64,000 nucleotides of DNA from an uncultured Gammaproteobacteria bacterium (GCA_964385285.1 CAYLOJ010000005.1:493-64492); one strand, 5' to 3'. Positions 16,622 to 42,814 are shown, numbered from the stretch's first letter. Program-made: numbers and translations. The notes: generated from the letters alone by a model not told the origin.

Positions 16622-18210
16622 TCTTGGCGACTTGTTCGCAGTGCCAACAAGCGTTTTCCATTTTTGAGCAAGATCAGACCTTTTACAAGCGTCTTGGAGT
16701 GCCAAATCCTGTACGCTGTCCGCAATGTCGATTTCAGTTGCGCATGTCATTTCGGAATGAACGGTTTCTCTACCAGCGGAATTGTGCGTTGTGCCATAAG
16801 GTCACTTTGTCACAATATTCACCAGATAAACCCTATGTCATTTATTGTCGTGCCTGTTGGTGGAGCGATCAATGGGATCCACTATCATTCGGACAGCCTA
16901 TCGATTGGTCTAGACCTTTTTTTGAGCAGCTGGCGGAGCTAAAGTTGCACACGCCGCGACTTGCATTACTGAACGATGGTGATAGTGAAAATAGTGAATA
17001 TTGTAACCGTGTGAATAAGCTGAAAAATTGCTACATGATCTTTGATGCTGTGGGGAATGAAAATTGTAGTTACGGTGCTGGCTTATACGGCAATCGAGAC
17101 AGCGTAGATTGTGATTATTGTGATCGCGTTGAGTTATGTTATGACTGTAGTTATTGCACAGAATGCTATAACCTAAAATTCAGCCGGGAGAGTGTGAATT
17201 GTCGAGACAGTGAGTACTTACTCGATTGCGTTGGTGTCTCTAATTCATTGATGTGTGTTGGTTTGCGGAATGTAGAGTATCATTATAAAAATAAACCGGT
17301 CACACCAGCGGAACTGAACCGACTACGACAGATGCCCCACAGCAGTGCTGAGTTTGAGCAATTTGCTTTAAACATGCCACGGCGCTACTACAATGGTGTA
17401 AATAACGCTGATAGTAGTGGTGATCATTTGGTAAATACACACGCTGTCCAAAACTCCTTTCAAGTGCGAGATTCTGAAAACTGTAGCTACTGTTATGGCG
17501 TGCATCACAGTAAGGATTCTTACGATTATACGATTTGGGGCGAACAAGCCGAACTGATGTATGAAGCGCATGCCTGTGGTGGACAGACAACACGCACCTT
17601 ATTTGGCAATGTGGTTTGGTACGGACACGATACCTATTATTGCGACCACTGCTTGAATGGAGCTGTAGATTGTTTTGGCTGCATTGGTTTAAAGAATCAA
17701 TCAAACTGTATTCTGAATAGATCATATTCTCCCGAAGTGTACCAAGCCACCAAAGATAAATTAATTGAACACATGAAAGCGACGGGTGAGTGGGGTCAAT
17801 TTTTTCCGGAGCGTTTGAGCGATTTTGCATATAATGAAACGATGGCTCAAGAATTCTTTCCGCTGACCAAAGCACAAGCTCTAACCCGAGGTTGGCAGTG
17901 GCAGGATCACTTACCCGGTATCTATGGTAAGGCTGATGCGGGTAAGCAGATCTATGATTGCATCGATTGTAGGAAGAATTTTAAATTGGTGACAGCAGAG
18001 CTAGAGTTCTATCAAAAACAGGGTATTCCTGCACCATCGCGCTGTCCGGATTGTCGGCACGCTGCCAGAATGCGATACAGGCCACCCTACCAACTATGGG
18101 AGCGCAGCTGCATGAACACGGGCTGCACGAATCGTTTCCAAACCGCTTATAGTCCAGAACGTAAAGAGATCATCTATTGTGATAGCTGCTATAAACAGTT
18201 AGTCTATTAA
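16618..18210 (+). CDS. Cys-rich tandem-family protein A (N- and C-terminal zinc-ribbon-like modules, Cys-rich repeats)
   Basis: ATG at 16618 overlaps the TGA of the upstream ATPase (ATGA). About 10% Cys. N-terminal 'CSQCQQ..FY..LGVPNPVRCPQCR..LRMSFRNERFLYQRNCALC..VIYCRACWWSD'. C-terminal 'FYQKQGIPAPSRCPDCRHAARMRYRPPYQLWERSC...IIYCDSCY'. Confidence 0.7.
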   Translation: MILATCSQCQQAFSIFEQDQTFYKRLGVPNPVRCPQCRFQLRMSFRNERFLYQRNCALCHKVTLSQYSPDKPYVIYCRACWWSDQWDPLSFGQPIDWSRPFFEQLAELKLHTPRLALLNDGDSENSEYCNRVNKLKNCYMIFDAVGNENCSYGAGLYGNRDSVDCDYCDRVELCYDCSYCTECYNLKFSRESVNCRDSEYLLDCVGVSNSLMCVGLRNVEYHYKNKPVTPAELNRLRQMPHSSAEFEQFALNMPRRYYNGVNNADSSGDHLVNTHAVQNSFQVRDSENCSYCYGVHHSKDSYDYTIWGEQAELMYEAHACGGQTTRTLFGNVVWYGHDTYYCDHCLNGAVDCFGCIGLKNQSNCILNRSYSPEVYQATKDKLIEHMKATGEWGQFFPERLSDFAYNETMAQEFFPLTKAQALTRGWQWQDHLPGIYGKADAGKQIYDCIDCRKNFKLVTAELEFYQKQGIPAPSRCPDCRHAARMRYRPPYQLWERSCMNTGCTNRFQTAYSPERKEIIYCDSCYKQLVY

Positions 18211-18211
18211 T

Positions 18212-19867
18212 ATGTCGTCGAACTGTCGACACTGTCAGTCTGCATTTGTAATCACGAGCAGTGACCAAGCTTATTATGATCGCATCGCCGTACCGGCACC
18301 AACCCTATGCCCGCGTTGTCGTTTGCAGCGTCGCCTAAACATGCGCAATGAACGTGTCTTGTATCGACGCTCATGCGATTTGACCAGTGAATCAATCGTG
18401 ACCATTTTTTCACCGGATAGCCCATATACGGTGTATAGCCAAAGCGCTTGGTGGAGCGATCGTTGGGATCAACTAAAATTTGGCCGGGAGATGGATTTTA
18501 CTCAGCCCTTCTTCGCGCAGTTAAAAGCTTTGCAACTACAGCAGCCGCGCATGGCCTTACTCGCCAAAGATAGCGAGAATTCTGAATATACTAATCATTC
18601 TGCTTACAACAAAAATTGTTATTTAGGTTTTTCTGTGGTGAATTGTGAAGACGTAGCGTACGGATTCATGAATTTTAAATGTCAAAATTTAGTGGATTGC
18701 AGTTACATGTATGATCATAGCGAGCTGTGTTATGAATCTTTCTATGGACACGGAAATTATCGCTGTGCTTACACCACGCTTTGTCGGAATTGCACGAATG
18801 TTTGGTTTAGTTTTGATCTAAGTGGTTGTAAGGATTGCTTCTTGTCATATAACCTGCGCAATAAGCAATATTGTTTTTTAAATCAGCAATTAACTGCCGT
18901 TGAATATCAGCAGCGCGTGGCTGAGTATCAAACCATGACCTATGAGCAACAGCAGGGTCTTATTCAACAATGGCGGATGCTAATGGCTACGCAAGCCGTG
19001 CATCAAGCAACTCATCAAATTCATTGTTCAGACACCACGGGTAATTATCTGGCGCGGTGTCATCAAGTGCACGAAGGATATTATGTATCCGAGGCAGAAA
19101 ATTGTAGTTATGTAGCGCAAGCGGAAAATATTAAAGATTGTGTTGATGTAACCAATGTAGCACCGGCCGAAGCCTGTTATGAGGTTGCGGCTATTATTAA
19201 TGATAATCATTGCAAGTTTACCAACTACTCATATGATGATAGTTTCTTAGAATATTGCGATCACGTATTTAATTCACAACATCTCTTTGGTTGTGTTGGT
19301 CTAAATCGCCAGAAGTATTGTATTTTGAATCGGCAATATACGGAACCAGAATACGAGCGATTAAAAGCCAAATTAATCGCTTACATGAAAACGACGGGGG
19401 AGTACGGTGAGTTTTTCCCCTTAGGATATTCACCCTTTGCGTATAACGAAACGGTTGCCCAGGATTTTTTCCCTCTCACCAAAGCGCAAGCCCTAGCCTT
19501 GGGTGCTCAGTGGAATGATGCACTCGATCTCTTATCGCCAATTACCAATGGAGTAGATGCAAGTACATTGCCAGATACGATTGCTGGTGTTGAGGATGAT
19601 ATCCTGACTAAAACGTTGATATGCATTGTCTCTAAACGTGCCTATAAAATTCAACCCACTGAACTGTACCTGTATCGACAGCTGGGAATACCGTTGCCAC
19701 GTAAACATCCCGAAGTTCGGTTGAAGGAGCGCATGACCCAACGGGTCACCCCCGGTTTATTTGAACGCCAGTGCAACAAATGTTTACGGTCAGTGGCATC
19801 CAGTTTTGCAGCCGATCGTTCAGAGCGGATCTATTGTGCAAGCTGTTATCGCGAGGCCGTTTATTAG
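18212..19867 (+). CDS. Cys-rich tandem-family protein B (partly degenerate zinc ligands)
   Basis: Starts 1 nt after A's stop. N-terminal 'CRHCQ...YYDRIAVPAPTLCPRCRLQRRLNMRNERVLYRRSC', but the second knuckle is lost ('VYSQSAWWSD'). The C-terminal module has 'RKHPEVR' in place of CPxCR. Confidence 0.7.
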   Translation: MSSNCRHCQSAFVITSSDQAYYDRIAVPAPTLCPRCRLQRRLNMRNERVLYRRSCDLTSESIVTIFSPDSPYTVYSQSAWWSDRWDQLKFGREMDFTQPFFAQLKALQLQQPRMALLAKDSENSEYTNHSAYNKNCYLGFSVVNCEDVAYGFMNFKCQNLVDCSYMYDHSELCYESFYGHGNYRCAYTTLCRNCTNVWFSFDLSGCKDCFLSYNLRNKQYCFLNQQLTAVEYQQRVAEYQTMTYEQQQGLIQQWRMLMATQAVHQATHQIHCSDTTGNYLARCHQVHEGYYVSEAENCSYVAQAENIKDCVDVTNVAPAEACYEVAAIINDNHCKFTNYSYDDSFLEYCDHVFNSQHLFGCVGLNRQKYCILNRQYTEPEYERLKAKLIAYMKTTGEYGEFFPLGYSPFAYNETVAQDFFPLTKAQALALGAQWNDALDLLSPITNGVDASTLPDTIAGVEDDILTKTLICIVSKRAYKIQPTELYLYRQLGIPLPRKHPEVRLKERMTQRVTPGLFERQCNKCLRSVASSFAADRSERIYCASCYREAVY

Positions 19868-19989
19868 CGTATACTATTAATTGACATGTGACTGAATAAT
19901 TTATACTAAGGTTAGGTGAAAATAAATATTCGAACGCTAAAAATCTAATTCCATTTGACCACGTTAAGCCATTCCATTACGCTTCTGTT
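19868..19989 (+). repeat. duplicated intergenic block, copy 1 (after family gene B)
   Basis: Shares 'TAGCGTATA..T..ATTGACAT' and 'AAAwATCTAAwTmCAwTTGACCACGyTTAGC' with 23258-23395. Confidence 0.55.
19881..19909 (+). promoter_or_regulatory. sigma70-type promoter for family genes C-D
   Basis: TTGACA (19881-19886), 17-nt spacer, TATACT (19904-19909); lies in the intergenic block duplicated at 23258-23395. Confidence 0.5.
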
Positions 19990-21567
19990 ATGCCAACTCG
20001 TACATGTACCAATTGCTCCGGACAATTTAATCTCTCATCTGCAGATGAAAAATTTTATCAGTCCATCAGTGCACCACTACCCAAACAGTGTCCGCGTTGT
20101 CGCCAGCAGCGGCGCTTAGCGTATCGTAACGAACGCGCATTATTTGCTGATCAGTGTGCGAAATGTCAAACAAAGATTTTGTCATTGTATCAACCCACGG
20201 ATGGTTTGACGGTCTATTGCCAGACGTGTTGGTGGAGTGATGATTGGGATGCAGCCGATTATGGACAGGAGATCGATTGGAATCGTTCATTGTTGGAGCA
20301 ATATCAGGAAGTACGCAAACGTGTACCGCGCCTAGCCATTGTCAATTTGAATAGTGAAAATTCAGATTACACCAACATGTCAGCGGACAACAAAAATTGT
20401 TATCTATTGTTCGCATCAGAAAACTGTGAGAACTGTTCCTATGGAAAATTAGTTCAACACTGCAAAGACTGCTTTGATAATGCTTTTCTGTATGATTCTG
20501 AATTGTGTTATGAATGCATTAATTGTCGCAATTGTTTTCAGTGTACATATTTGCAGGATTCCCAAGACTCACGAGATTGTCATTACTCGTTAGGCTTAAA
20601 AGGTTGCAGTAATGTTTTTTTAAGCAATGATTTGCATAATAAAGAGTATTATATTCGTAACCAACCCGTTGCCCCGCAGGAATATGCAGCCAAGGTAGCA
20701 GAGTTATTAAAGGATCAACCGCAATGTCAGCGAGAATGGGATGCGTTATCACAAAAACGGATTGTAAAATACGCCGGAATTTTGAATAGCCCAGATTGCA
20801 CTGGTGACGCACTGACCAATTGTAAACGTGTGTTTGACTCGTATGATATTACCGATGGTCAAGATATCCGTTATTGCAGTGATGCCCTCACTCCGAAAGA
20901 TAGTTATGATTGTTCATTCTTCTATTACAATCCAGAATTGTGTTACGACTCACTCAGCATGCTGGAAACATACAACGTGCATTATTCAACCTTTATTTTT
21001 TATAGTCGTGATGTTGAATATGGTGATCAGATCCACAATAGTCATGACGTCTTATTATCTTCTTGCCTCCGTAAAAAAGAGTACACCATATTAAATAAAG
21101 TTTACTCTCCTACGGAATACGCAGACTTACGGAAGCGAGTGATTGCTAAAATGACCGAAGATGGTGAATACGGAGCCTTGCCGCCACTGAAGTATAGTTT
21201 GTTTGCCTATAATGATACTGTCGCTAACGAATACTTTCCATTGACCGCTGATCAAGCCAAACAAAGACATCTACGTTGGAACCAATCCGCAGATGCTGTA
21301 ACTACTAAGCCCTTTAACCTGACAGCGGCCGAAAAAGCCTTTTACGCTCAATTACATTTAACCGAACCTACTGTACATCCCGAACTGCGTCATCGTCGTC
21401 GCATGGCTAAACGTAATCCACGCAAATTATGGGAGCGCCAGTGTATGTGCGTGGAGGCAGATCATCAGCACGCCGTACAGTGTCCTAAGAAGTTTCACAC
21501 TACGTATATGCCTGATCGTTCAGAAAGTGTCTATTGTGCCGAGTGTTATCAAAAACGTTTTTACTAA
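19990..21567 (+). CDS. Cys-rich tandem-family protein C
   Basis: N-terminal 'CTNCSG..FYQSISAPLPKQCPRCRQQRRLAYRNERALFADQCAKC..VYCQTCWWSD'. C-terminal '...VHPELRHRRRMAKRNPRKLWERQCMC..DHQH..VYCAECY'. Confidence 0.7.
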   Translation: MPTRTCTNCSGQFNLSSADEKFYQSISAPLPKQCPRCRQQRRLAYRNERALFADQCAKCQTKILSLYQPTDGLTVYCQTCWWSDDWDAADYGQEIDWNRSLLEQYQEVRKRVPRLAIVNLNSENSDYTNMSADNKNCYLLFASENCENCSYGKLVQHCKDCFDNAFLYDSELCYECINCRNCFQCTYLQDSQDSRDCHYSLGLKGCSNVFLSNDLHNKEYYIRNQPVAPQEYAAKVAELLKDQPQCQREWDALSQKRIVKYAGILNSPDCTGDALTNCKRVFDSYDITDGQDIRYCSDALTPKDSYDCSFFYYNPELCYDSLSMLETYNVHYSTFIFYSRDVEYGDQIHNSHDVLLSSCLRKKEYTILNKVYSPTEYADLRKRVIAKMTEDGEYGALPPLKYSLFAYNDTVANEYFPLTADQAKQRHLRWNQSADAVTTKPFNLTAAEKAFYAQLHLTEPTVHPELRHRRRMAKRNPRKLWERQCMCVEADHQHAVQCPKKFHTTYMPDRSESVYCAECYQKRFY

Positions 21568-21586
21568 CTTCTGAGCTGGTTGAAGT

Positions 21587-23257
21587 ATGAATATCCAATG
21601 CCAACAGTGTCACAAAACGTTTCAGGTCACGCCCGATGACCAGTCGTTTTACGAACGGATCAAAGTACCTGCACCGACACTATGTCCAGATTGTCGCTAT
21701 CAGCGGCGCATTGTGTGGAGGAATGAGCGAACGTTATATAGTCGCCAGTGTGATCTTTGCCATAAAGGTATTATCTCGCTCTATCATCCGGCAAGTCCCT
21801 ACACGGTCTATTGCTATGAGTGCTGGTACTCTGATCAATGGAATCCATTAGATTACGGGCAGGAGATCGATTTTAGTCGTCCATTTTTTGAGCAGTTCAA
21901 AGCGTTGCAGCTAAAAGTCCCTCGGTTGTATGCCTTGATGGTTAACAATGAAAATTGTGAATATACCAATGGTACTCAGCAATGCAAAGATTGTTACATG
22001 ATTTTTGCTAGTGATCATGACGAACAGTGTATGTATTCCTATGGCACCTTTAATTCTGTGCAATCATTAGATCTAATGAGTAGTACTAAATGTGAGCTGT
22101 GTTATGAATGTGTTGGTTGCAGCAATTGTTATGATCTGCAGTATTCTGAGGATTGCAGTAATTGTCACTCCTCACTATTTCTGATTGACTGCAAGGGGAG
22201 TAGTGATTGCTTCATGTCGTATGGATTGCGAAATAAACAATATGTTTGGCAAAATCAGCAATTAACAGCTGAACAGTATCAGACAAAGCTGGCAAATTTA
22301 AAACGCAGTAGCTATCAAACGATTGCTCGGCTAAAAACAGAGTTTGCTAATCTGAAAAAGAAACACATCTTCAAATATTATCATGGCCAGAATAATGAGA
22401 ATTGTTCTGGTGACTACCTGGAGCGGTGTGTCAATAGTACTCACTGCTTTGAAAGTTTTGGGATTCAAAATTGCAAGTATATTACACATGGTAACCAAAT
22501 TAAAGATACCTATGATGGTTATATGAATGTGGATGGAGTGGAGCTCGGTTATGAATTAGTGGGGGCGATTGGTTCCTATAATGTGAAGTATGCGATTGCC
22601 TATTATGGTGGCCGAGATTGTGACTATATGGATACGGCCAAACAGGTGAATAACAGTTTTGGTTGTGTGGGATTGCAGCACCAGCAGTATTGTATTCTGA
22701 ACAAACGCTACAGCCCAGAAGACTATGCCCAGTTGAAGAGTCGTCTGATTGAACATATGAAAACTACGGGTGAGTATGGTCAGAATTTTCCAGTGACCTG
22801 TTCACCATTCGCGTATAATGAAACAGCAGCTCAGGACATGTATCCTTTGACCAAAGCTGAAGTGGAGGGTCGGGGATGGCAATGGCGTGATCCAATCGTC
22901 AAAGAGGCGCGCTATAGTACTTATCGTGTAACGGATGACATCGCTAAAACTAATGATGATGTCTTGCAAACATTTTTGACCTGTGCGCAATGCCATAAGC
23001 CTTATAGAGTTGTAGCAGCAGAATTGGCGTTTTACCGTACGCAACAGATTCCGTTGCCACGCTGCTGTTTTGAATGTCGTCATCGCCAGCGCTTAGATCA
23101 CCGCAACCCGAGAGCTCTCTGGCATAGGCAGTGCATGTGCACTCAACCAGATCATGGCCACGCTGCAGTTTGTGCCAACACCTTTGAAACGGCTTATCCA
23201 GAGAGTAATGCGGCAATTGTCTACTGTGAACGCTGCTACGATCAAACCATTGCTTAA
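21587..23257 (+). CDS. Cys-rich tandem-family protein D
   Basis: N-terminal 'CQQCHKTF..FYERIKVPAPTLCPDCRYQRRIVWRNERTLYSRQCDLC..VYCYECWYSD'. C-terminal 'FYRTQQIPLPRCCFECRHRQRLDHRNPRALWHRQCMC..DHGH..VYCERCY'. 19 nt after C. Confidence 0.7.
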   Translation: MNIQCQQCHKTFQVTPDDQSFYERIKVPAPTLCPDCRYQRRIVWRNERTLYSRQCDLCHKGIISLYHPASPYTVYCYECWYSDQWNPLDYGQEIDFSRPFFEQFKALQLKVPRLYALMVNNENCEYTNGTQQCKDCYMIFASDHDEQCMYSYGTFNSVQSLDLMSSTKCELCYECVGCSNCYDLQYSEDCSNCHSSLFLIDCKGSSDCFMSYGLRNKQYVWQNQQLTAEQYQTKLANLKRSSYQTIARLKTEFANLKKKHIFKYYHGQNNENCSGDYLERCVNSTHCFESFGIQNCKYITHGNQIKDTYDGYMNVDGVELGYELVGAIGSYNVKYAIAYYGGRDCDYMDTAKQVNNSFGCVGLQHQQYCILNKRYSPEDYAQLKSRLIEHMKTTGEYGQNFPVTCSPFAYNETAAQDMYPLTKAEVEGRGWQWRDPIVKEARYSTYRVTDDIAKTNDDVLQTFLTCAQCHKPYRVVAAELAFYRTQQIPLPRCCFECRHRQRLDHRNPRALWHRQCMCTQPDHGHAAVCANTFETAYPESNAAIVYCERCYDQTIA

Positions 23258-23395
23258 TAGCGTATAAGTTCAATTGACATTCACGTATTTTTTGCTAACC
23301 TAAAATTAGGTATTTTTTGAATTTTCCCCAGCTAAATATCTAAATACAATTGACCACGCTTAGCACTAATATTACCGTAAGATCATTGCACCACT
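23258..23395 (+). repeat. duplicated intergenic block, copy 2 (after family gene D)
   Basis: See copy 1: same conserved ends, internal indels. Confidence 0.55.
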
Positions 23396-24172
23396 ATGAT
23401 TACTAGCAAAGTTAAGAAAGATCTTTCCCAACTAGGTTTAACCGACAACGAGATCAAATTCTATGTGGCCGGATTGGAGTTAGGCTTGGCGACGATTCCA
23501 CAAATTGCTGAACGCGCCGGTTTATCCCGCATGACTGGTTATAACATTTTTAAAGTGTTGAGCCAGAAAGGGATGGCCGATATGGATGTACGTAGTTATG
23601 GTCAGAAATGTAAAGTGGCGAAACCAGCAAAATTACTCACTTTGTTTGAGCAGGAACGCAAAAGCTTAGATAAATTGGCCACCGACATGCCCAATTTAAT
23701 TGGGGAGTTGAATGTGTTGTATTCCTCAGTACCAGAGGATTTAGAGATCCATTACTTTCGCGCGAAAGAAGCGATCACTAAAATTTGGGACGAGGCCTTA
23801 ACCAACACAAAAAAAGGGGATGATCTATTAGTGCTATCCGCTGTAGATCTAGCGCCTACTCTGGGTGAACACTATCTGGAATTCATGGAAGAGCAACTGT
23901 TGCGTAGTACAGAGAAAGGGATTCACCTGAAAATGATTTTGGAAAAAACAGGTACCTATACCATCGCGCGAAGTGAGCTACAGCAACTTATTCCAGAATC
24001 AATGCAAATGAAATTAGGCGCTACATGTGATCAATTGATTTATGCTGATCACGTGGCCTACATATTTCCAGGCCGTGAATTGTTTGGCATCACTATTCAC
24101 AATAAAGAATTGGCTAATCACCATTCCAGAATTTTCTACACGTTGTGGAATAAAACCTATTCGTTAAATTAA
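23396..24172 (+). CDS. TrmB-family HTH transcriptional regulator
   Basis: N-terminal 'LSQLGLTDNEIKFYVAGLELGLATIPQIAERAGLSRMTGYNIFKVLSQKGM' fits the TrmB wHTH pattern (GL..E.KVY..LL..G..T..EIA...G..R..VY..L..L..KG). Embedded between family genes D and E. Confidence 0.6.
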   Translation: MITSKVKKDLSQLGLTDNEIKFYVAGLELGLATIPQIAERAGLSRMTGYNIFKVLSQKGMADMDVRSYGQKCKVAKPAKLLTLFEQERKSLDKLATDMPNLIGELNVLYSSVPEDLEIHYFRAKEAITKIWDEALTNTKKGDDLLVLSAVDLAPTLGEHYLEFMEEQLLRSTEKGIHLKMILEKTGTYTIARSELQQLIPESMQMKLGATCDQLIYADHVAYIFPGRELFGITIHNKELANHHSRIFYTLWNKTYSLN

Positions 24173-24258
24173 TTACCGTTTAGTAATGGGCATAAAGCCC
24201 ATCCCTCTCAATTATTTCTGGAGACCCCGGGTTTATCCTGGTGGTCAAACGATTATTT

Positions 24259-25887
24259 ATGCAAACTTCCCAATGTCAAAATTGTAGTAAAACCTTCCGT
24301 ATCACTGATACTGATTTAGCATTTTACAAAACGATCGATGTTCCATCACCCACACATTGTCCAGATTGTCGACAACGTCGGCGGTTAGCCTGGCGCAATG
24401 AGCATACGTTATATAACCGGCAGTGCGATCTCTGTAAAAAAGCCATTGTCTCGATTTATCCGGCCAACTCCACGTTTACAATTTATTGCCATGACTGCTG
24501 GTGGAGTGATCAGTGGAACGCTTTAGATTATGGACAGGCGATTGATTGGGAAAGACCATTTTTTGCGCAGTGGAATGAACTGCAGCAAAAAGTGCCCAAG
24601 ATTGCCTTGTACGCAGCTGACAATGAACAATCGGATTATGTGAATATGACCGGATACAGCAAAGGTTGCTATTTAGTATTCGCCGGCGATTACGATGAGG
24701 ATTGCATGTATTCCACGCAAGCCATTAAATCGATTAGTTGTGTGGATACGTTGAATTGCACCGAAAGTGAGGATTGTTACGAAGTGGTCGATGTGGAGCG
24801 GTGTTACCGATTGTTTTGGTCACAGAATTGCAAGCATTGCACGGATAGTATGTTTTTATTTGATTGTCGTGGTTGTACAGATTGTTTATTTTCTACTAAC
24901 TTACGCAACCAACGCTATTACATTTTTAATAAGGAATATACACCAGAACAATATCAACAAAAAAAAGCTGAGTTAATTGCCGAAATCCGTTCTGGTAAGT
25001 TGCCGAGCCTGTTAAGACAGTTTCAAGACTTATGCATTAAAGCCATCCATCGTCCCTTGGAACAAGCCAATAGTGAAGCGATCTCCGGTGACTTTATCTT
25101 TAATTCTCAGGATGCGCAGCAATGTTATGACGTAAATGGTATTGAACATTGCCGCTATGTGTACACAGGATTTCATGTGAAGGACCTTATGGATGTCTGT
25201 CATACCACTGATATCGAATTAGGCTATGAGGCCACCAGCATTGGCTATAACGCATATAATTGTCAGTTTGTGATGACCGCTTGGACTGTACGAGATTGTT
25301 ATTACAGCACTGAGATTTTTCATAGTCATGATCTCTTTGGCTGTGTTGGCTTATCCAAGCAACAATTCTGTATATTAAATACACAGTACACCGAAGAGGA
25401 GTATCATCAGCTCAAGAAAAAATTGGTGGATCAGATGCGTGCAACAGGTGAGTATGGCGAGTTTTTTCCTATGTCACTCAGCCCGTTTGCCTATAACGCT
25501 AGCATGGCACAGGTGTGGTATCCGTTAACACGCGAGCAAGTTCAGGCTGAACAATTGCAATGGTATGAAGAGCCGGCCAAACTGAACACCAGCGGTACAG
25601 ATGTGCTGAGGTGCACCAAGACTGGTAGGTCATATCGTGTTATTCCACAGGAGCGTGCTTGGTATCAGCGAATGGGATTACCGATTCCAGTAGTGTGCCC
25701 TGATGAACGTCGCCGTCTCCGTTTTATTCAACGCAATCCACGCCAATTATGGCAACGGCAGTGCATGTGTACACAAACTGATCATCAACATCATGGACGT
25801 TGTAGCGAAGAGTTTGCCACTACCTATGCTCCAGATCGGAAAGAGCTAGTATATTGTGAGCACTGCTACCAGAAAGAGGTGCTTTAA
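24259..25887 (+). CDS. Cys-rich tandem-family protein E
   Basis: The ATG at 24259 ('MQTSQCQNC') aligns with the paralog starts; the track GTG at 24241 is an alternative. C-terminal 'GLPIPVVCPDERRRLRFIQRNPRQLWQRQCMC..DHQHH..VYCEHCY'. Confidence 0.7.
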   Translation: MQTSQCQNCSKTFRITDTDLAFYKTIDVPSPTHCPDCRQRRRLAWRNEHTLYNRQCDLCKKAIVSIYPANSTFTIYCHDCWWSDQWNALDYGQAIDWERPFFAQWNELQQKVPKIALYAADNEQSDYVNMTGYSKGCYLVFAGDYDEDCMYSTQAIKSISCVDTLNCTESEDCYEVVDVERCYRLFWSQNCKHCTDSMFLFDCRGCTDCLFSTNLRNQRYYIFNKEYTPEQYQQKKAELIAEIRSGKLPSLLRQFQDLCIKAIHRPLEQANSEAISGDFIFNSQDAQQCYDVNGIEHCRYVYTGFHVKDLMDVCHTTDIELGYEATSIGYNAYNCQFVMTAWTVRDCYYSTEIFHSHDLFGCVGLSKQQFCILNTQYTEEEYHQLKKKLVDQMRATGEYGEFFPMSLSPFAYNASMAQVWYPLTREQVQAEQLQWYEEPAKLNTSGTDVLRCTKTGRSYRVIPQERAWYQRMGLPIPVVCPDERRRLRFIQRNPRQLWQRQCMCTQTDHQHHGRCSEEFATTYAPDRKELVYCEHCYQKEVL

Positions 25888-33652: not shown

Positions 33653-34894
33653 CTACTCGTAGCGCAGAGCTTCAATCGGATGCAACTTAGCGGCTTTTAA
33701 CGCAGGATAAAGACCAAAGATAAACCCAGTCGTCATTGAAACTGCGCATGCTAAGAACACAGCTGATGGCACGAAGACAAATTGGATATCCCAGGTGGGT
33801 TGTACTAGATTCACGACAATGACCGCAGCATAGGCCAATCCTAATCCAACTCCGATACCGATCAAACCACCGAGCGTAGTGAGAACAGCAGCTTCAATTA
33901 AAAATTGAACTAGAATAGAACTATTTTTGGCACCAACCGCTTTACGCAAACCAATTTCTTTAGTCCGTTCTTTCACTGTTACTAACATGATATTCATGAT
34001 ACCAATTCCACCAACGAAGAGTGAGATTGCAGCAATGGCCGCAACGAACATCTGAATACCTACTAGAACGGTGTCAAAAATACTTAAGGCCTGCTCACGA
34101 CTTTGAATAAAAAGACGCTTAGCTTGCTCCTCGTCTAAATTTTTAATCCGTTTAATTTCAAACGCGATGCGATCTTTAAATTGATCCACATCCGCAGTGG
34201 GGTCAATCGCTACTAAGAGTAGTGTAACTTTATTATAATCTTCAGCTGGAGCGAGATACGCATAGACAGTGGTGATAGGAATATAGACGTAGCCACCACC
34301 AAACGCACCGCTTAATGGGGGATCATTCACTACACCAATCACAAGCAAGGATCGTCCTTTAATCGTAATCGTATTGCCAACTGCAGCACCGGCAGCACCA
34401 AACACATCGTTAGCCACACTTTCTGATAACACAATTACGTTATCTGCCCGGTTCACTTCTGCGTCGGAAAAGCCACGACCTGCCAAAAACTTCAAATTAT
34501 TCACATTAAATACTCCGGTGCGATCTCCCCAGACAGATACCTGATAGGTTTCACTATCATATTCTAAATTACCAGACAGCGTATAAGCCGTAGAGATATC
34601 CTCTAAATCAGAAAGTAGGCTAGAAGAACGGAGCTCATCAGCATCGCTCAGTGTAAAGGTAATGGGTTCGGAATCGGCAAATGGACCGAACGAACCTTGA
34701 TCGGCTACCTCGATTACGTTGGTGCCAAATTGGCTGATTTGACCAAGCAAAAACTGTTTGGCGATTTCGCCGAGCGTCATAATCAGAATCACAGATCCAA
34801 TTCCGATAATAATCCCTAACATCGTCAAGAACGATTTGCCTTTATTGGCCAGCAATTGGCGGACTGAAGTTTGAACGTGCGTAAGTAATAGCAT
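33653..34894 (-). CDS. ABC transporter permease, MacB/FtsX-like
   Basis: N-terminal TM, large periplasmic domain, and C-terminal FtsX 3-TM bundle 'ERTKEIGLRKAVGA'. Confidence 0.8.
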   Translation of the reverse strand: MLLLTHVQTSVRQLLANKGKSFLTMLGIIIGIGSVILIMTLGEIAKQFLLGQISQFGTNVIEVADQGSFGPFADSEPITFTLSDADELRSSSLLSDLEDISTAYTLSGNLEYDSETYQVSVWGDRTGVFNVNNLKFLAGRGFSDAEVNRADNVIVLSESVANDVFGAAGAAVGNTITIKGRSLLVIGVVNDPPLSGAFGGGYVYIPITTVYAYLAPAEDYNKVTLLLVAIDPTADVDQFKDRIAFEIKRIKNLDEEQAKRLFIQSREQALSIFDTVLVGIQMFVAAIAAISLFVGGIGIMNIMLVTVKERTKEIGLRKAVGAKNSSILVQFLIEAAVLTTLGGLIGIGVGLGLAYAAVIVVNLVQPTWDIQFVFVPSAVFLACAVSMTTGFIFGLYPALKAAKLHPIEALRYE

Positions 34895-34896
34895 AG

Positions 34897-35589
34897 TTAT
34901 TTCTGGATTTTACCATCACGCATAATAATTTGACGGGAAGCGTAGGCAGCCACTTCATCTGAGTGGGTCACCATAATGACTGTCTTGCCTTCGTCATGCA
35001 GTGCACTAATTAATTCCATGATCTCATGTGATGTTTTGGTATCCAGATTACCAGTCGGTTCATCGCAGAAGAGAACGGTGGGATTATTAACCAATGCTCG
35101 AGCGATGGAGACGCGTTGTTGCTGTCCACCGGAAAGTTCATTGGGCTTATGATAAATGCGGTTAGACAAGCCGACGCGCTTTAACAATTGATAGGCGCGT
35201 TCCCGGGCCGCCTTTTTTTTGACACCAGCATAGAGGAGGGGAAGTGCAACATTATCTAAGGCTGAGGTACGAGATAAGAGGTGAAACTGTTGAAACACAA
35301 ATCCCAGCACTGCATTGCGTAGTTCTGCTAGGTAATTATCACTGAAGGAGGTAATGTTTTGACCAGCAAACCAGTACTCGCCACTGGTGGGGGCGTCTAG
35401 AAATGCCAGTACATTCATTAATGTTGACTTGCCTGATCCGGATGGCCCCATTAAGGCTAAGAATTCTCCTTCATGGACTGTCAGGTTGATACCACGCAAC
35501 GCTGGTACTTCCAAAGTACCATTCCAGTACGTTTTAACAATATCCACTATGCGGATGACTTCGTTCGTTGATTTTTTCATTGAGTCCAA
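34897..35589 (-). CDS. ABC transporter ATP-binding protein (MacB/LolD-type)
   Basis: Walker A 'GPSGSGKST'; signature 'LSGGQQQRVSIARAL'; Walker B 'LFCDEPTGNLD'. Confidence 0.9.
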   Translation of the reverse strand: MDSMKKSTNEVIRIVDIVKTYWNGTLEVPALRGINLTVHEGEFLALMGPSGSGKSTLMNVLAFLDAPTSGEYWFAGQNITSFSDNYLAELRNAVLGFVFQQFHLLSRTSALDNVALPLLYAGVKKKAARERAYQLLKRVGLSNRIYHKPNELSGGQQQRVSIARALVNNPTVLFCDEPTGNLDTKTSHEIMELISALHDEGKTVIMVTHSDEVAAYASRQIIMRDGKIQK

Positions 35590-35597
35590 AGCTAGAG

Positions 35598-36572
35598 TTA
35601 AAAGATGGAGGCACTGCTAGACTTTGGGATATTGAGAATCACGGTAGCGCCATCGGTTAATCCAGAGGTAATTTCAATATAGTCGTCACCGTCGAATCCT
35701 GTAGTCACGGTTTGTTCAATCGGTGCAGCATCTGTTGTGGCACCTGGCAGCCATACAAAGGCAGTGCCATCATCGTGATACTGAATAGCAGCACGCTCTA
35801 ATGACAGCACTTGATCACGCTGATCCACAAGTACTTTAATATTAACCGTCAATCCAACTAAATTACCAATCTCTTCTGGTAAATCTGATGGTCGAATGCG
35901 GGTAAGATAACCACTTTCCGTGCCACCGGATTGAGCTAGCTGACTACCGGATGTGCTTTTCTGTGTATCAACGGATTCCACGGTACCATGATAGGTATCA
36001 CTACCATTACGATAAGTGGGTATGGTTAATTCAACAGCCTGATCTTTACTGAGATCAAATACTTCAGATTCAGTAGCAACAAAATCGACAAAATTCGAGC
36101 GATAGCCAACTTCGAAGACGGGGTTACCGGCTAGGGCTGTACTGCCTACAAAGGTGTTTACGGCTAATACTCGACCATCAAATGGGGCTTTTAATTGTTG
36201 ACTGCCAATTTTTGCCAAGACATCATCCTTATCGACTAAATCACCAATAGCCACATTCACTTCAGTGACCTTGCCACCAAAACTGAAGGCTAGCTGTTCG
36301 GTATGCTCAGGGGCAATTTTCCCATTAGTGCTGATAGCTTTATTCAGATCACGCACATCTGCTACCACAGTTTGATTCGTATCAAGCGTTGTGGCACTCA
36401 TGGATGAGGAGACCATTTGTATGACTATTCCTACACCCGCAAGCACTACACATACGATGATCAACCAGATCCACCAACGTTTATACCAACTGACGCGCGG
36501 AGGTTTGGGAAGCATGGCCATAGCAATAGAATAAAAGTTAAGACGATTATTTAGAATGGAAAACGGATACAA
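35598..36572 (-). CDS. periplasmic adaptor (HlyD/MacA-like membrane-fusion protein)
   Basis: N-terminal TM then a beta-barrel/lipoyl-like region; operon position upstream of the ABC ATPase and permease. Confidence 0.6.
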   Translation of the reverse strand: MYPFSILNNRLNFYSIAMAMLPKPPRVSWYKRWWIWLIIVCVVLAGVGIVIQMVSSSMSATTLDTNQTVVADVRDLNKAISTNGKIAPEHTEQLAFSFGGKVTEVNVAIGDLVDKDDVLAKIGSQQLKAPFDGRVLAVNTFVGSTALAGNPVFEVGYRSNFVDFVATESEVFDLSKDQAVELTIPTYRNGSDTYHGTVESVDTQKSTSGSQLAQSGGTESGYLTRIRPSDLPEEIGNLVGLTVNIKVLVDQRDQVLSLERAAIQYHDDGTAFVWLPGATTDAAPIEQTVTTGFDGDDYIEITSGLTDGATVILNIPKSSSASIF

Positions 36573-36593
36573 CTATATCACAGTTGCCAGTCA

Positions 36594-36622
36594 TTGACAA
36601 TTTGCTAAACTTAAGTTATATT
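36594..36622 (+). promoter_or_regulatory. sigma70-type promoter for the small-ORF and giant-protein operon
   Basis: TTGACA (36594-36599), 17-nt spacer, TATATT (36617-36622), in the divergent intergenic region. Confidence 0.5.
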
Positions 36623-36666
36623 TAGTCGTTCAATCAATTTTTTCTCTAACAAAAAACATTAAAACT

Positions 36667-36975
36667 ATGGCATCACCAACATTACCGCTCGACACGAAAA
36701 CTGCGGAACGCTTAGCATGGTTGTTGGCTCAGTCAGTGATGCCGGAAGAGCAAAAGTCAGCTTGGTTAAATTTGTTGCCGTTAATGTCTGTGGAACAGGT
36801 GCAGCGCCTAATGCAAGTGTTGGAGCAGGAACAGGCGGCCTATCAAGCGGTTAGTGCTAGTTTTTTCTCTGACTTGGATGCAGTGGTGAAAGAGATGAAT
36901 ACGAGCTTAGAACGATTGCAAGCCAAAGAACGCAAGGAGATCGAACGTTATATCCAAAAACTACTCCATGAATAG
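36667..36975 (+). CDS. small all-helical hypothetical protein, translationally coupled to the giant gene
   Basis: 102 aa; its stop overlaps the giant gene's start (ATGAATAG). Confidence 0.5.
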   Translation: MASPTLPLDTKTAERLAWLLAQSVMPEEQKSAWLNLLPLMSVEQVQRLMQVLEQEQAAYQAVSASFFSDLDAVVKEMNTSLERLQAKERKEIERYIQKLLHE

Positions 36976-39900
36976 TATTGATCGTCAATGGATTGATCTC
37001 CCTGATGCATTACCTCAGGTCGATCTCAAGGCTGAACGTGTCGTTCCAGATGCTGCCGAAGTGAACGCTCCTGAATTAGGTTTGCGTAAACGTTGGACAA
37101 CCTTAGTACAAGGTGTCCGTGAGCAGTATAAAGGTTGGAAGGAGCGATTAATGGATCGTACTGATGAAACCTTAACTGAGATCGCTGACCAATATGTTGG
37201 TGATTGGCGTGAGACACAGCCGACGACCATGTGGCAATCGGCCAAGCGTGCGGTGGAAGCAACGCGTAAATCGCTGACTTTACGCAAAGCCATGGATTTA
37301 TCTGTGCGAGGTGCATTGGTTGGAATTGAGTTTAATGCCCAAATGGCCGCCAAACAATTTTTAGTGGACATTGCGATTCGTCAGGCCGATTGTGATACCT
37401 TAGCAGAAAAATATGCTGGCCACGGTGGGGTTGCCGCAGTGGAAGCGGAAGCGATGAAATTTGCGGATCAAGTACGTCAACATTTTGCAGAGCTACAACG
37501 CGTTTCAGAGCGCATGATGCCAGCAGAGGGTGGTGACCGTGAAGCCTACCGGCAGCAGCACATTGAACGTGGCATGAAGTATGCGCACGAATTATTACAA
37601 GGAGTAACCATCATTCCGGAGCAACGTCGCCAGGCGATTTTGGGAGATATCCATCGGCATCTAGATACAGTAGTGTTTGATGGTGAGAAATCTTCATTGA
37701 TGCGCGGTTATGAAAAATTATCTGGGCAATGGAGCAATGCTATACAGGGTATTGTCGAGCGCCACGTGGATATTTATCAAGCACGTAAAGCACGCAATAC
37801 GGCGGTGTTAACGACCGGTGCGCGCTGGCTAACGCTCGGCGTAGAAAGTTTCGTCATTGGCAAGGCGATGTCTACTTACAGCACTGTATCAGTAAATTAT
37901 GAGAAAGCATTGCAACAGCGTCCCGCGCACGAACGGACCACTGGAAAACGACTAGAAGCGTTGGCCGAAAGCGTGCGTACTAGTCTGCGTCAATTCGCGC
38001 TCCATGACAGATTTGAATTAGCTTTACGAAATAATAAAACTGTGAGTGCGAGTGTTGAGCGTTTGATTACTCCCGAACAACAAGCTGCCGACTTTGAAAG
38101 TTTTGCTGTGGATCAAATTGCGATTAGCTTATGGACGGAGTATGGTGAGCAGCTCAAAGCGCGTGGAATCTCTGAAGATGATTTGTATGCACGTGTGGAG
38201 GATATAGCCGCCTTTCAAGGTGATCGTCGCCAAGCCCTAGAGCGGCTGTTGAAGCATAAGTTGCTGGGAATGCATCGGGAAGTAGTGAAGGCAAGTGCCA
38301 AACAGTATGAGCATCTGTTTAATCAGTTTAATGCTACGGTTACTACCTTGGGAATGTTAGAACACCTCGATACCACTTTAGAGGCTAAATATGTTCCGGC
38401 CGTTGATGCCACAGCGGCTAATATTGAAACCGTATTAACACATCTGCAGGATGCCGTGCAGGAAATTACAGTCACGCGGGTGACCTCGACGGATTCGGCT
38501 AGTGCGGTTGTTACGATACCCGATTCTTATGATTATTCCTATGATGCTTTGCATCAATCGGTTGATCCTGAAGCTTTTGCCGCTGGTGAAGAGGTTCCGC
38601 CGGAGAATACCGTTGCCAATGTACATTATGTAGTGGAGTCTGGCGAAACTACCTGGAAGATTGCCAGTGATCATTTGGAGTGGTACCGCCAACGCGAGGG
38701 TAATGATCACTTAACCGTTCCACAGGCAGTGGAATTATTAGCACGAGATAATCATCTCACAAACGCGGCGCGTATCGAAGTAGGTCAAACATTAGTCTTA
38801 CCAACGGAGCTACCGCCTGCAGTGGATGACAGCGATGATCCTTATGGCGAATCTGTAGAAGAAGCGCCACGACTGCCAGAAGGGATGTGGGAACAAGATC
38901 GCGTCATGTCACATGAGCAAGCGGTGATGGCAGCCAAAGGAGTGGATCATCATTTAGCGAACGACCATTATGTCTCCGGCGCTACGCGTGAAGATCTGAA
39001 TAAATTGCCACCGGGTGATTATGTGACGATCTTTGGTGAGCGTATGGGTAAGCGGAACAATACGATGGGTGTATTTTATGATCAAGTGTATGACTTACAT
39101 GTGGACGCCACTGGTGCAGTAACCGCCAAAGAGCATGGCGTGGCCGATACCACGCCGATGGATTTGAGTGAGTTACTGAGCACGGAACAAGCTCCAATTG
39201 TGCGAGTATTTAGTTTGGAGGCGACGGATTTGACGATCGATCATGGACGTCTCAATTCAGCGGAATGGTCTGACTATAATTTAGCCATGATTGAATCGTT
39301 AAAACATGAGGCGGTCCGTGTTGAAGATAAAGATGGCGCCTATTGTGCGAAGGATATGGCTGGTCGTTTTAATCTAATGGCAGAACAGCTGGCTGCAAAA
39401 ATTGGTGTAAACATTATTGATGGTCGAGGTGAATTATCTGGCGTGACTGTGCATGCCCCGATGGTGGCAGAAGCGATTATTACGAATGGTGGTCAAGAAC
39501 TAGCCACACTGAAAACATATTTTACTGTGGATGCTGGCGGTGCACACCCACAAGAGAACTTAAACAGTGACAATGCCGTGTATCGCTACGGTGTGGATCA
39601 GTGGATTAAAGCTGCAGCCGCTAATCCGTTAGAAATTGGAACATTTTATTTTACCGGTACCCATATTAACGATATCATCGCTGCCAATCGCGAGATTGGT
39701 GGTGAGCCCAATTCACATGTGGTTACATTGTTGGGTGAGCAGAATCATGAATTGACCGTTCCCAAAGACACAACGATGGCGGCTTTGTTGCATAACCGTT
39801 TTGGCCTGAGTAAGACTGATTTGGCAGAACGTGGCTATTTGTTTGAAAGTTTAGGCATCGAAGTGAATGGTCAAGTCATTACCAATCAGGCGGAATGGTT

Positions 39901-41839
39901 GCAGCAACCGGTGCAAGCTGGTGATGAAATTGTGATTCATGATGTAGCCTTGAATCATCGCTTTAATGGTGATCATGCCGATACGTTAGTCACTATGTTG
40001 GTGAATGATGAGCGTCTGATACCCGTTAGTATCTTAGAGCCGAATGCTGAAATCATGAATGCAGCGTTGCGTGGTGATCCGACGATCGACAATGCGGTCA
40101 TGGTGGATCAATTTATGCAAGTCAAAGCTGGTCAGGGGTTAGCGGAGTTAATGGGTGAAGCTGGATTATCATCAGACTTATGGAAGGCGGCAGAGTTTGT
40201 ATTAGCTGAACGTGGTATTAACCCAGAAACGGTACGCACGGGTGATTTAGTGCCAATCTACAATGAGGAGGCATTACGGGCGCAACTCGATACGATCTAT
40301 GAACGTGCGGAACAGCGCATGGAGGCAGCTGATGGCAGTGGTGTGCAGGTACATATTGTGCGTCCGCATGAAAGCATGGATGATCTTGCAGCCGGGTTCT
40401 TTGACCGCGAGCGTTACTCCGCTGCAGAGTGGGCACAGATCCGTGATCAGATTGCTTACAAGGCTCAGATTCCTAATGGGGAAAAAGCGATGCCAGGGGA
40501 TTTACATACCATGCCGTATACGATCAAAGAGTATCATTTGCAAGCCGATGCAGTGATTAAGCTAGACGATAATACTTTAGCAGATTTCGAGAAACACATT
40601 TGGCAGCAGCGCGCTGATGAACGTGCCTACTTGCCTGATACACTACCCATTGCTGTCGAGGACGGTATCGTTGAGCAAGCCATTCCAGATGAGATTAGTC
40701 GTTTGATTGATACCGTTGTGGATAGTAATCCAGAATATGGAGAGCAGGTACGGATAGCGTTAGCATTGGTTTACGCCAATGAAGGGATGCGCGAAACCGC
40801 TGATCAAAATTGGTTGACTGAACAACTTGCCTGGGTGAATGCACATTTAGTTGATCGCTCAGCGACGTTAGAGCAGGCGATGATCTGGTCGGAATATCTC
40901 ACTAGTCGCCAAGCTCAGAAAGATGTAGCTTGGGCCATCCAAGATCAGCCCATGGCCAAAGCTGTACTAGACAGTGTGATTGCCCAAGCCAAAGTAGGTT
41001 CTGCAGAACGACGGGCACTCGTTGAAGCTTATCCTACGGCATTATGGTTACCAGGAGAGTTTGGAGATAGTATTGTTGATCCGATCATTGGCCAAATGGA
41101 AAAAGTAGCGGGTGTTTCTTCCGCTGGTTTGTTTCAAGTCCGGGCTAATAACTTCTTCGAGAAAACGGATCCCGCGCATGATCAACTGGAAGTAGACTTG
41201 CGTGCTGACCCGTTGTTGAACACTCACGCTGCTGCTGAAATTTTACATCGCAATGAGGCGGCTATAGATACCTATGTTGCAGCCTTTGGTGATCCGCAAG
41301 CGAAGAGTGAAACTGCTCATGTACTGGCACTGGTGAACTCTTACAATGGCGGGCCTTACAAAACCATGTTAGGTAGTCTACAAGAACGCATTCTATATTT
41401 TGCGGATCATGAACACGTACAGATCCCGTTAGAGCAAGCTAGCGGCCGCAACACCGAAGCTACCCAAGCAGCCTTGCTGGCAATGTGTGATCAATTACGC
41501 AGTGAAGGTAAACTAATGGTTCCACAGGATCAGGTTGAGCGTGATGTGGCGTTGTTGGGGAAGGAAACGATTGGTTTCTTGCGTAGTGATACTATGCAGC
41601 AATTAAAAGGTGCATACGAAGAAAGTACTGGTCAGTCACTTAGCATTTTACCTACCGCTGATCGTTTAACGGACGCTAAGGTTTCCTATGCTAATTATGC
41701 ATTACTATCCACTCGTGGTGGTAGCTTAGATGCAATTATTGAGCACTCTCAAAATGTTCGGATTGCTCAAGGCAACGCGGTTGTGAAGGGTTATGCACGT
41801 AACCTTGCGATTCCTTATTCCAGTGTTACTCCAAGCTAA
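36968..41839 (+). CDS. giant hypothetical protein (1623 aa) with an internal LysM-like segment
   Basis: Uninterrupted ORF with uniform host-like composition. Residues ~546-606 '[23 protein letters not shown]...[10 protein letters not shown]' fit LysM. No signal peptide recognised. Confidence 0.7.
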
Positions 41840-42477
41840 AGTTTGCGACCAGCGTCTTGCAAAAATTTAGCCAGGCCACTTTCTGTTAGTGGATGCTGAA
41901 ATAGTTGTTCGAATACTTTATAAGGAATCGTGGCAACATCAGCACCTACTTCTGCTGCTTGCTTTACATGTTGAGGGTGTCGGACAGATGCTACTAACAC
42001 TTGAGTAGAGAATGCATAGTTGCGTAGTACGTGTAGTATATCTGAGACCACTGCCATTCCATCTTGGCCGATATCATCTAGGCGACCAACAAATGGTGAG
42101 ATAAACGTGGCGCCGGCTTTTGCAGCCAATAATGCCTGGTTAGGAGTGAATACTAATGTGACATTGGTCATGATCCCTTTGGCAGATAAAGCCTGTACAA
42201 CCGGCATGGCGGCTTTAATCATGGGCAGTTTGACCGTAATATTTTTGTGTAATTTGGCTAACGCTAACCCTTCGACGAGCATTTCCTCAGTCGTCGTCGA
42301 TAACACTTCAGCGGAAATTGGGCCATCTACATATTGGCAGATCTCTTGAATGACTTCTTCGCGATTACGCCCCGCTTGTGCTACTAATGTGGGGTTTGTG
42401 GTAATGCCGTCGATTAAACCCGTACTAGCTGCGAGTTTGATCTCCTCGATGGAAGCAGTATCTAAAAATAGTTTCAT
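41836..42477 (-). CDS. transaldolase-family protein (fructose-6-phosphate aldolase/TalC type)
   Basis: '[14 protein letters not shown].....[12 protein letters not shown]' and the Schiff-base Lys region 'ITVKLP'; 213 aa. Confidence 0.85.
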
Positions 42478-42514: not shown

Positions 42515-42814
42515 TTAAGATTGCTGCGCGTACATTACCCAACGTATGATGCGTTCTAATTCGGCAACTACTACTGGTGAGCGATAATCACCGGCGTGAC
42601 GTTTCAGACCCGCTAGTTTGATCGTGCTTTGCTTTTGATCAAGATGTAATGATAAATCCAAGCTAGAGGTATCGTCTCGCAAGTAGAGATGAAAGCGGGG
42701 ATAGAAGGCATTGCTCAGTTGACGCACCCAAGCATCTTGCAATGGGTGATAACCAGCCTGGCGCAGTACATTTGCTACGTTGATTTGGCGTTGCAGAGTT
42801 ACTGTTTTGTCCAT
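42515..42814 (-). CDS. hypothetical protein
   Basis: 99-aa ORF with host-like composition. Confidence 0.35.

Follow-up and report, generated by a model that had tools for sequence, protein, structure and literature searches.

Can a giant protein that carries no export signal be an enzyme of the cell wall, and what does the small gene that precedes it contribute? These questions are raised by a pair of genes located between positions 36,594 and 41,839 of a 64,000-nucleotide stretch of DNA deposited under the name of an uncultured Gammaproteobacteria bacterium (GCA_964385285.1, CAYLOJ010000005.1:493-64492; the whole stretch is hereafter called the window). The first gene encodes an acidic protein of 102 amino acids (aa) (36667-36975, + strand, pI 5.0), and the second encodes a protein of 1623 aa (36968-41839, + strand, 180 kDa, pI 4.9). 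Neither product has a signal peptide, and the larger one lacks transmembrane segments as well. We propose that the giant protein remodels peptidoglycan as a wall-anchored enzyme, that it leaves the cell independently of Sec, and that the small protein is its dedicated partner, a reading that we hold with a confidence slightly short of even.

The small and giant genes form a conserved unit

A preliminary description, made from the sequence alone, had proposed these two open reading frames (ORFs), an overlap between the stop of one and the start of the other, and a tight pairing to be checked by synteny in relatives. All three proposals hold. We recovered both ORFs at the same coordinates, and both are real genes, because full-length homologues of the giant protein exist at 34-58% identity, and 22 homologues of the small one were found (97-123 aa, 45-87% identity). 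The ATG of the giant gene lies inside the final codons of the small ORF, in an overlap of 8 nt (ATGAATAG, 36968-36975, + strand) that would couple the translation of the two genes. Overlaps or very short gaps are likewise found at L001-L004, L006, L018, L019, and L020; among loci, the overlaps span 4-23 nt and the gaps 5-27 nt.

At 11 out of 11 related loci (the window, L001, L002, L003, L004, L005, L006, L016, L018, L019, and L020), the giant homologue is directly preceded by the small ORF, with the proviso that the sequence of L005 ends 60 codons into the gene that follows the small ORF. The neighbourhoods are varied, and some are unrelated to one another: they include RelA and ParAB at L004, DsbA and DoxX at L006, ribosomal protein S6 and YchF at L019, and Ppx and Fic at L020. 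A scan of metagenomes with the small ORF revealed just one further locus with the small and giant genes, and no alternative cargo beside the small ORF. Since the pairing is found at all loci and a divergent MacAB-type operon is adjacent only at some of them, sequence comparison indicates that the small and giant genes are the conserved unit and that the pump is a lineage-specific neighbour.

The small gene co-occurs with a particular part of its partner. The first 545 residues of the giant protein (36968-38602, + strand) form, in the alignment, a domain that is specific to the giant subfamily and conserved in it, including in the distant member P0039. This domain accompanies the small ORF at each place where the latter is clearly recognisable. 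In Peregrinibacteria, three loci have no homologue of the small ORF, and the relatives of the giant protein are without the N-terminal domain. In P0038 (L020), another distant member of the giant subfamily, the hidden Markov model (HMM) of the N-terminal domain detects nothing, and the upstream ORF matches the small gene weakly. The domain itself had no match in the PDB and gave only weak HAAS hits in Pfam (best E=0.005). A homologue search with its alignment returned no matches, but it missed the known members too and is thus uninformative.

The small protein matched no family in Pfam, NCBIfam, or PHROG. The preliminary description had called it all-helical; it contains no Pro or Gly after residue 38, and so no helix breakers in that part. 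It is acidic, small, of cytoplasmic type (no signal), adjacent to the giant gene, and inherited with it, as are the small members of chaperone/substrate pairs. By this analogy, it is plausible that it acts as a chaperone or adaptor of the giant protein, as the preliminary description had suggested, and the strict co-occurrence with the N-terminal domain lends weight to that suggestion. The N-terminal domain would then be the candidate docking site to which the small protein binds.

Distribution and host lineage

Full-length proteins from metagenome-assembled genomes (MAGs) of Candidatus Kerfeldbacteria are the closest homologues of the giant one, at 54-58% identity. We therefore attribute the window to a genome of the Candidate Phyla Radiation (CPR, or Patescibacteria); judging from these homologues, the host is a Kerfeldbacteria-like CPR bacterium. 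The reduced symbiont imagined in the preliminary description thus turns out to be a reduced CPR bacterium, as indicated by the homologues and by the named members of the family, which belong to Kerfeldbacteria, to the ‘Patescibacteria group’, and to Peregrinibacteria. An HMMER profile of residues 641-1623 matched only 21 clusters in an exhaustive search of 1.84 billion cluster representatives, and four loci turned up when 185,579 species genomes were scanned. On this evidence the two-gene operon is confined to a small group within the CPR/Patescibacteria, made up of Kerfeldbacteria and their relatives. One of the paired loci, L016 (CAZSXL010000080.1), is a contig of 5.8 kb with the pair at 55% identity, in a MAG labelled ‘uncultured Gammaproteobacteria’; it is probably a misbinned CPR contig.

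The giant gene is single-copy and evenly conserved, and it has no hypervariable region. Interruption of the gene by frameshifts in related strains had been put forward as an observation that would refute the preliminary interpretation. For the most part, the check brought no such refutation: one of about 12 homologues, that of L018 (a Patescibacteria MAG), contains a single in-frame TAG (6241-6243, around codon 171), and the 1575 codons that follow are open. This TAG may stem from faulty assembly, from variation within the population, or from a nonsense mutation that arose recently.

Domain architecture of the giant protein

The preliminary description had recognised a LysM-like segment around residues 546-606 and no other domain. 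The segment is indeed a LysM domain (PF01476, aa 554-612, 38627-38803, + strand), with 28.1 bits for a Pfam gathering score of 20.9. It aligns with the LysM of Escherichia coli MltD (hhalign P=2.5e-6), and the homologues P0034 and P0038 also pass the Pfam threshold. The second part of the statement has to be abandoned, because we found an SLT-like C-terminal domain, two more LysM-like modules, a beta-grasp-like segment, and a domain with conserved Cys, His, and Asp residues.

The two additional LysM-like modules were delineated using hhalign and the secondary structure predicted by AlphaFold2 (AF2). The first of them, module 2 (aa ~1046-1100, 40103-40267, + strand), aligns with the LysM of MltD over 43-45 of 49 columns with P between 6.5e-5 and 1.1e-4, when reversed controls give P>=0.29. 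Module 3 (aa ~1126-1185, 40343-40522, + strand) aligns with the family's own LysM (P=4.7e-6, controls P>=0.1). AF2 predicts a beta-alpha-alpha-beta unit at each of the two positions, with a predicted local distance difference test (pLDDT) of 66-82. These modules are the only confident part of the model of residues 641-1623 (six sequences), which has a pLDDT of 44. Neither module has a hit in Pfam, nor was either confirmed by fold search, the Foldseek result on this model being meaningless. Hence, the presence of two extra, divergent LysM-like modules is supported by profile alignments and structure prediction but not proven.

The central domain (aa 745-1026, 39200-40045, + strand) was defined using an alignment of 12 diverse homologues with 15-46% identity. 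Only three of its residues are invariant in these sequences: Cys793 (39344-39346), His917 (39716-39718), and Asp992 (39941-39943), all on the + strand. They follow one another in the order Cys-His-Asp, which is that of papain-like, NlpC/P60, and CHAP enzymes, and they may constitute a catalytic triad. The stretch between residues 926 and 990 resembles a beta-grasp and gives weak ThiS hits (20.6-22.1 bits). The AF2 model of the central region has a pLDDT below 50.

The C-terminal domain (aa 1232-1623, 40661-41836, + strand) was identified using the Pfam profile SLT (PF01464), hhalign, and sequence motifs. When isolated, it scores 23.4 bits with the Pfam profile, above the gathering score of 21.3, while the whole protein scores 20.8 bits; the profile matches only five of 15 family members. 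Alignment with the catalytic domains of E. coli Slt, EmtA, MltC, MltD, and MltF gave P values between 1e-4 and 1.8e-4, compared with P>=0.12 for all controls (reversed, column-shuffled, and from unrelated regions). We scored the conservation of motifs over 15 sequences with 21-60% identity. Three motifs of the SLT type recur in the family, namely an invariant Glu, S-x-GLFQ, and (S/A)YN-x-(G/P). In the giant protein, the first is Glu1272 (40781-40783), which ends a hydrophobic helix and is invariant in the 15 sequences, the second is S-x-G-L-F-Q at 1384-1390, and the third is S-Y-N-G-G-P at 1458-1463. The residue that follows Glu1272 is Gly or Gln, not the Ser of the E-S motif. The spacing between the first two motifs is canonical in Peregrinibacteria (20-30 residues); the giant subfamily has an insertion of ~100 residues at this place. 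Downstream of the motifs, there is a conserved helical extension of 160 aa. The AF2 model of residues 1232-1623, made with the 15 sequences, has a pLDDT of 74.6. From these alignments and motifs, homology of the C-terminal domain to SLT is supported but not proven.

The protein ends with a tail (aa 1595-1623, 41750-41836, + strand) in which R1598, G1602, R1611, and P1616 are conserved. It is predicted to be unstructured, with a pLDDT below 50 over the last 24 residues. To see in it a signal for recognition or secretion would be speculative.

A family without export signals, with relatives fused to wall-building enzymes

The absence of a signal peptide, already remarked upon in the preliminary description, extends to membrane helices. 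The maximum Kyte-Doolittle (KD) hydropathy of the giant protein is 1.17 over its whole length (KD19) and 0.53 in its first 75 aa (KD15). Across the family, there are neither signal peptides nor hydrophobic segments, and the maximum KD19 is always below 1.6. The window also encodes two paralogous proteins with FG-GAP repeats and a C-terminal YkuD L,D-transpeptidase domain (2404-3804 and 6872-8353), both of which have classic signal peptides. Used as controls, they have KD scores of 2.1-2.5. The missing signal of the family is thus not a peculiarity of the organism, since it equips its YkuD proteins with signal peptides.

The homologues from Peregrinibacteria are shorter (860-1475 aa) and have in common a core made of the Cys/His/Asp, LysM-like, and SLT-like parts. 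In several of them, this core is fused to other domains: YkuD and SH3 in P0049, LCP in P0044 and P0050, and a NodB-type polysaccharide deacetylase in P0046. The YkuD, LCP, and deacetylase domains score well, with E values between 1e-11 and 1e-20. Neighbouring genes encode an M23 peptidase at L007 and YceG/MltG at L008. The YkuD, LCP, NodB-type, M23, and YceG/MltG domains all act on the cell wall, outside the membrane. The surface function that had been anticipated for the giant protein is therefore backed, as a role in the cell wall, by the domain content of the family.

A proposed role and its alternatives

How could these parts work together? In the model that we propose, the three LysM-type modules would hold the giant protein on the glycan strands. 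The SLT-like domain, with Glu1272, GLFQ, and SYNGGP, would cut the glycan backbone, and the domain with Cys793, His917, and Asp992 would act on the peptide stems as a cysteine amidase or peptidase. Such functions imply that the protein is exported; as Sec and Tat signals and membrane segments are missing, it would reach the wall by a Sec-independent route. The best candidates for a targeting or chaperone module are the 545-aa N-terminal domain and the small, acidic, presumably helical protein whose translation is presumably coupled to it, which might work in the manner of the pairs of small chaperone and large substrate in type III, IV, and VII secretion. The target would preferably be the wall of the producer, because the relatives are fused to wall-building enzymes. 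The wall of a host is also a possible target, given the episymbiotic lifestyle of CPR and the report that another patescibacterium needs peptidase and lysozyme genes located next to virB4 for its epibiotic growth (PMC12102498).

Several observations weigh against this model. No export system accompanies the pair with any consistency. When the C-terminal domain is aligned with SLT using hhalign, the catalytic Glu of the latter falls two residues away from Glu1272. A Foldseek search of the PDB and BFVD with the AF2 model of this domain gave no significant match, and no lytic transglycosylase or lysozyme among the matches; a lysozyme-like fold was thus not recovered by fold search, which weakens the SLT interpretation. 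When the sequences of the PDB were searched with profiles of the whole protein and of its C-terminal, central, and N-terminal domains, the hits did not rise above the level of chance. As for the central domain, no Pfam family matched it at E<=10 in the 12 members, with the exception of the beta-grasp, and Asp992, one of the three putative catalytic residues, is within this beta-grasp-like segment.

A broader hypothesis, which we put forward as a doubtful extension of the model, is that the N-terminal domain and the small protein make up an unrecognised Sec-independent export or targeting module for large, folded, multi-enzyme wall proteins in CPR. The wider family, with its signal-less fusions to YkuD, LCP, and NodB, would then mark a CPR-specific route that places enzymes in the wall of the cell or delivers them onto that of the host.

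The same features could also describe a contact-dependent effector, sent by a monoderm-type type IV secretion system (T4SS) of Patescibacteria, or by another secretion ATPase, to breach the wall of the host. The small protein would be its chaperone and the Arg-containing tail its signal. The absence of a Sec signal, the small acidic partner with its presumed translational coupling, and the conservation of a C-terminal tail that is predicted to be disordered all fit this explanation. It also draws on published work, according to which T4SS are widespread in Patescibacteria, the VirB1-like hydrolases of this group often include a LysM or M23 domain, and S. epibionticum cannot grow epibiotically without the peptidase and lysozyme genes beside virB4 (PMC12102498). 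There is even a TrwB/VirD4-like ATPase in the window (14243-16621), but it is 20 kb away from the pair and atypical, as its NTPase domain is N-terminal and it lacks the VirB4 signature. Moreover, there are no T4SS genes within 8-10 kb of the pair at L004, L006, L019, and L020, the fusions of the relatives to YkuD and LCP point to the maturation of the cell's own wall, and the even conservation of a single-copy gene without hypervariable region is not what this explanation would lead one to expect. We therefore regard an effector as unlikely.

The ATPase encoded at 14243-16621 has 792 aa, gives hits to TrwB_AAD_bind, DUF87, and TraG-D_C, and can be described as VirD4/HerA-like. It is followed by a set of paralogous ORFs of ~525-556 aa (region 16603-25887): 16603-18210, 18212-19867, 19990-21567, 21587-23257, and 24241-25887. 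Four of the five begin with a treble-clef zinc finger (zf_Tbcl), and 19990-21567 had no hit.

Might the giant protein remain in the cytoplasm? It could be a structural or regulatory protein in which the LysM-like and SLT-like segments are degenerate, non-catalytic relics. It is very acidic and largely helical, nothing in the family resembles an export signal, and the structure search did not confirm the SLT fold. Relics would hardly be expected to include a LysM that scores above the Pfam threshold, or candidate catalytic residues (Glu1272, Cys793, His917, and Asp992) that remain invariant over deep divergence. The YkuD, LCP, and polysaccharide deacetylase domains of the relatives, furthermore, act only outside the membrane. 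On balance, a cytoplasmic function seems to us rather improbable.

The importance of the family depends on whether its domains are active. The CPR accounts for a large part of the diversity of bacteria, and its members are presumed to live mostly in attachment to other cells. Little is known of the ways in which they build, remodel, or breach walls, and a signal-less family of putative wall enzymes bears on this matter. Active domains would mean a new peptidoglycan hydrolase domain and would hint at a novel export route, served by a dedicated small partner. Otherwise, we are dealing with a lineage-specific hypothetical protein of the ordinary kind that contains a LysM.

Control region and divergent pump

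The small and giant genes are preceded by a promoter-like sigma-70 site, TTGACA-17-TATATT (36594-36622, + strand), which matches the consensus in 11 of its 12 positions and outranks all other promoter-like sites between 36300 and 42600. The site had been called consensus-like in the preliminary description, rightly so, and it is contained in a 30-nt block (TTGACAATTTGCTAAACTTAAGTTAT) that the window has in common with L002 and L003, and in part with L001. It would be the promoter of the operon. On the other strand, a similar site, TTGTCA-17-TATAGT with TG (36572-36600, - strand), has a -35 hexamer that overlaps the one of the + strand and would serve the divergent pump operon. Its TATAGC/TATATC and TTGACAA elements are kept in related genomes. 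This shared bidirectional region may cause some co-regulation of the pair and the pump within the lineage of Kerfeldbacteria.

The divergent operon (33653-36572, - strand) has the composition that had been announced, i.e., an adaptor, an ATPase, and an FtsX-type permease. We matched them to an HlyD-type adaptor (35598-36572, - strand), an ABC ATPase (34897-35589, - strand), and a permease with MacB_PCD and FtsX domains (33653-34894, - strand). The true start of the adaptor is probably Met17 or Met19 (~36524), which fits the 306-308 aa of its homologues. The pump is adjacent to the pair at five of 10 loci (the window, L001-L003, and L018) and not at L004, L005, L006, L019, and L020. Where it is adjacent, the whole block is syntenic and includes the genes for PduO adenosyltransferase, the aldolase, and thiamine kinase.

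Could this pump export the giant protein or a fragment of it, as was initially suggested? Its divergent adjacency in that half of the loci, and the conserved bidirectional region with its overlapping -35 hexamers, which suggests co-regulation in that lineage, are what the suggestion has in its favour. In a syntenic block, adjacency may be inherited rather than functional, and the other five loci do without the pump beside the pair. Pumps of the MacB family work by mechanotransmission and do not transport substrates across their own membrane; these substrates arrive through Sec, and the largest are of ~10 kDa (PMC5985334). A protein of 180 kDa without a Sec signal is not the small, Sec-delivered substrate of a MacAB-type (type VII ABC) exporter. 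Because the linkage is not conserved and the mechanism does not fit, export by the pump is unsupported, and we consider it very improbable.

Lysins of phages do without a signal peptide and join modules for binding to domains of the Cys-His peptidase and glycosidase types, a composition that the giant protein recalls. An origin as a virion-associated or endolysin-like lysin of a prophage or mobile element, which would reach the wall through holin lesions or lysis, was nevertheless rejected and is in our view close to negligible, as a tblastn search of 50,697 phage records came back empty, the hits in PHROGs were weak (E>0.1) and due to LysM, the neighbours are housekeeping genes at every locus, and no holin, integrase, or structural genes are present.

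Other features of the window

Downstream of the pair, a convergent gene encodes a fructose-6-phosphate aldolase/transaldolase (41836-42477, - strand) and overlaps the stop of the giant ORF by 4 nt. This convergent arrangement is also found in L001-L003. Between the aldolase gene and that of thiamine pyrophosphokinase, there is an ORF of 99 aa without family match (42515-42814, - strand), which occupies the same position in L001-L003, with 99-108 aa.

Some observations concern the rest of the window. The G+C content is 0.59 at 4001-6800 and ~0.45 elsewhere. This region includes the gene of serine hydroxymethyltransferase (5490-6761, + strand) and an antisense ORF of 426 aa without family match (5475-6755, - strand), which is probably a shadow ORF of the GC-rich gene. 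The SecD protein (8919-10583) has an inserted peptidyl-prolyl isomerase (PPIase, rotamase) domain at residues ~147-228, an unusual fusion. No tRNA, rRNA, or any other Rfam family was found in the whole 64 kb.

Comparison with known systems

LysM autolysins, such as LytE, LytF, and CwlS of Bacillus or AcmA of Lactococcus, are proteins of 300-500 aa with Sec signals and NlpC/P60 or GH73 domains. The giant protein resembles them in having several LysM together with domains that cleave peptidoglycan, putative ones in this case, and in the non-covalent anchoring to the wall that this implies. It differs from them by its 1623 aa, the absence of a signal, the unmatched Cys/His/Asp domain, the N-terminal domain of 545 aa, and the obligate small partner. 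The family-1 lytic transglycosylases of E. coli (Slt70, MltC, MltD, MltE/EmtA, and MltF) have similar GLMQ and AYNxG motifs in profile comparisons and an invariant Glu upstream of them, and MltD has LysM as well. However, this similarity is remote, at the level of the Pfam threshold, and the giant protein has the insertion of ~100 aa, the helical extension of 160 aa, and no support from the fold.

The wall hydrolases controlled by FtsEX (PcsB, CwlO, RipC, and the amidases that depend on EnvC) also associate a long helical N-terminal region with the proximity of an ABC complex of the MacB superfamily (PMC6705773, PMC10694151, PMC7668044). They are exported by Sec, unlike the signal-less giant protein. 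Control of the FtsEX type was set aside, because the permease here is of the MacB_PCD type and comes with an HlyD adaptor, and because its adjacency to the pair is not conserved across the family.

TraG of pIP501 and PrgK of pCF10, bifunctional VirB1-like hydrolases from the conjugative T4SS of monoderms, have an N-terminal membrane anchor or signal, and the giant protein has neither. Like them, it would combine in a single protein a domain of the lytic transglycosylase type and a Cys/His peptidase or amidase, which are here only predicted (PMC12102498). The order of the domains is reversed in the giant protein (Cys/His, then SLT-like), it belongs to a distinct sequence family, and at most loci neither virB4 nor any other T4SS gene is linked to the pair.

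Pairs of a small chaperone and a large substrate are known from T4SS (VirE1/VirE2), from type III secretion (class I chaperones), and from type VIIb secretion (Lap/LXG). Our small protein has no sequence similarity to these families of chaperones, so that the likeness is one of gene pattern alone: a small acidic protein is encoded immediately upstream of a large signal-less one, is presumably coupled to it in translation, and co-occurs with its N-terminal domain. Judged by its sequences, the family is best filed as a CPR-restricted, multi-domain family of the peptidoglycan hydrolase type, unusual in being signal-less throughout, in having an unclassified Cys/His/Asp domain, and in having an obligate small partner tied to an N-terminal domain of its own.

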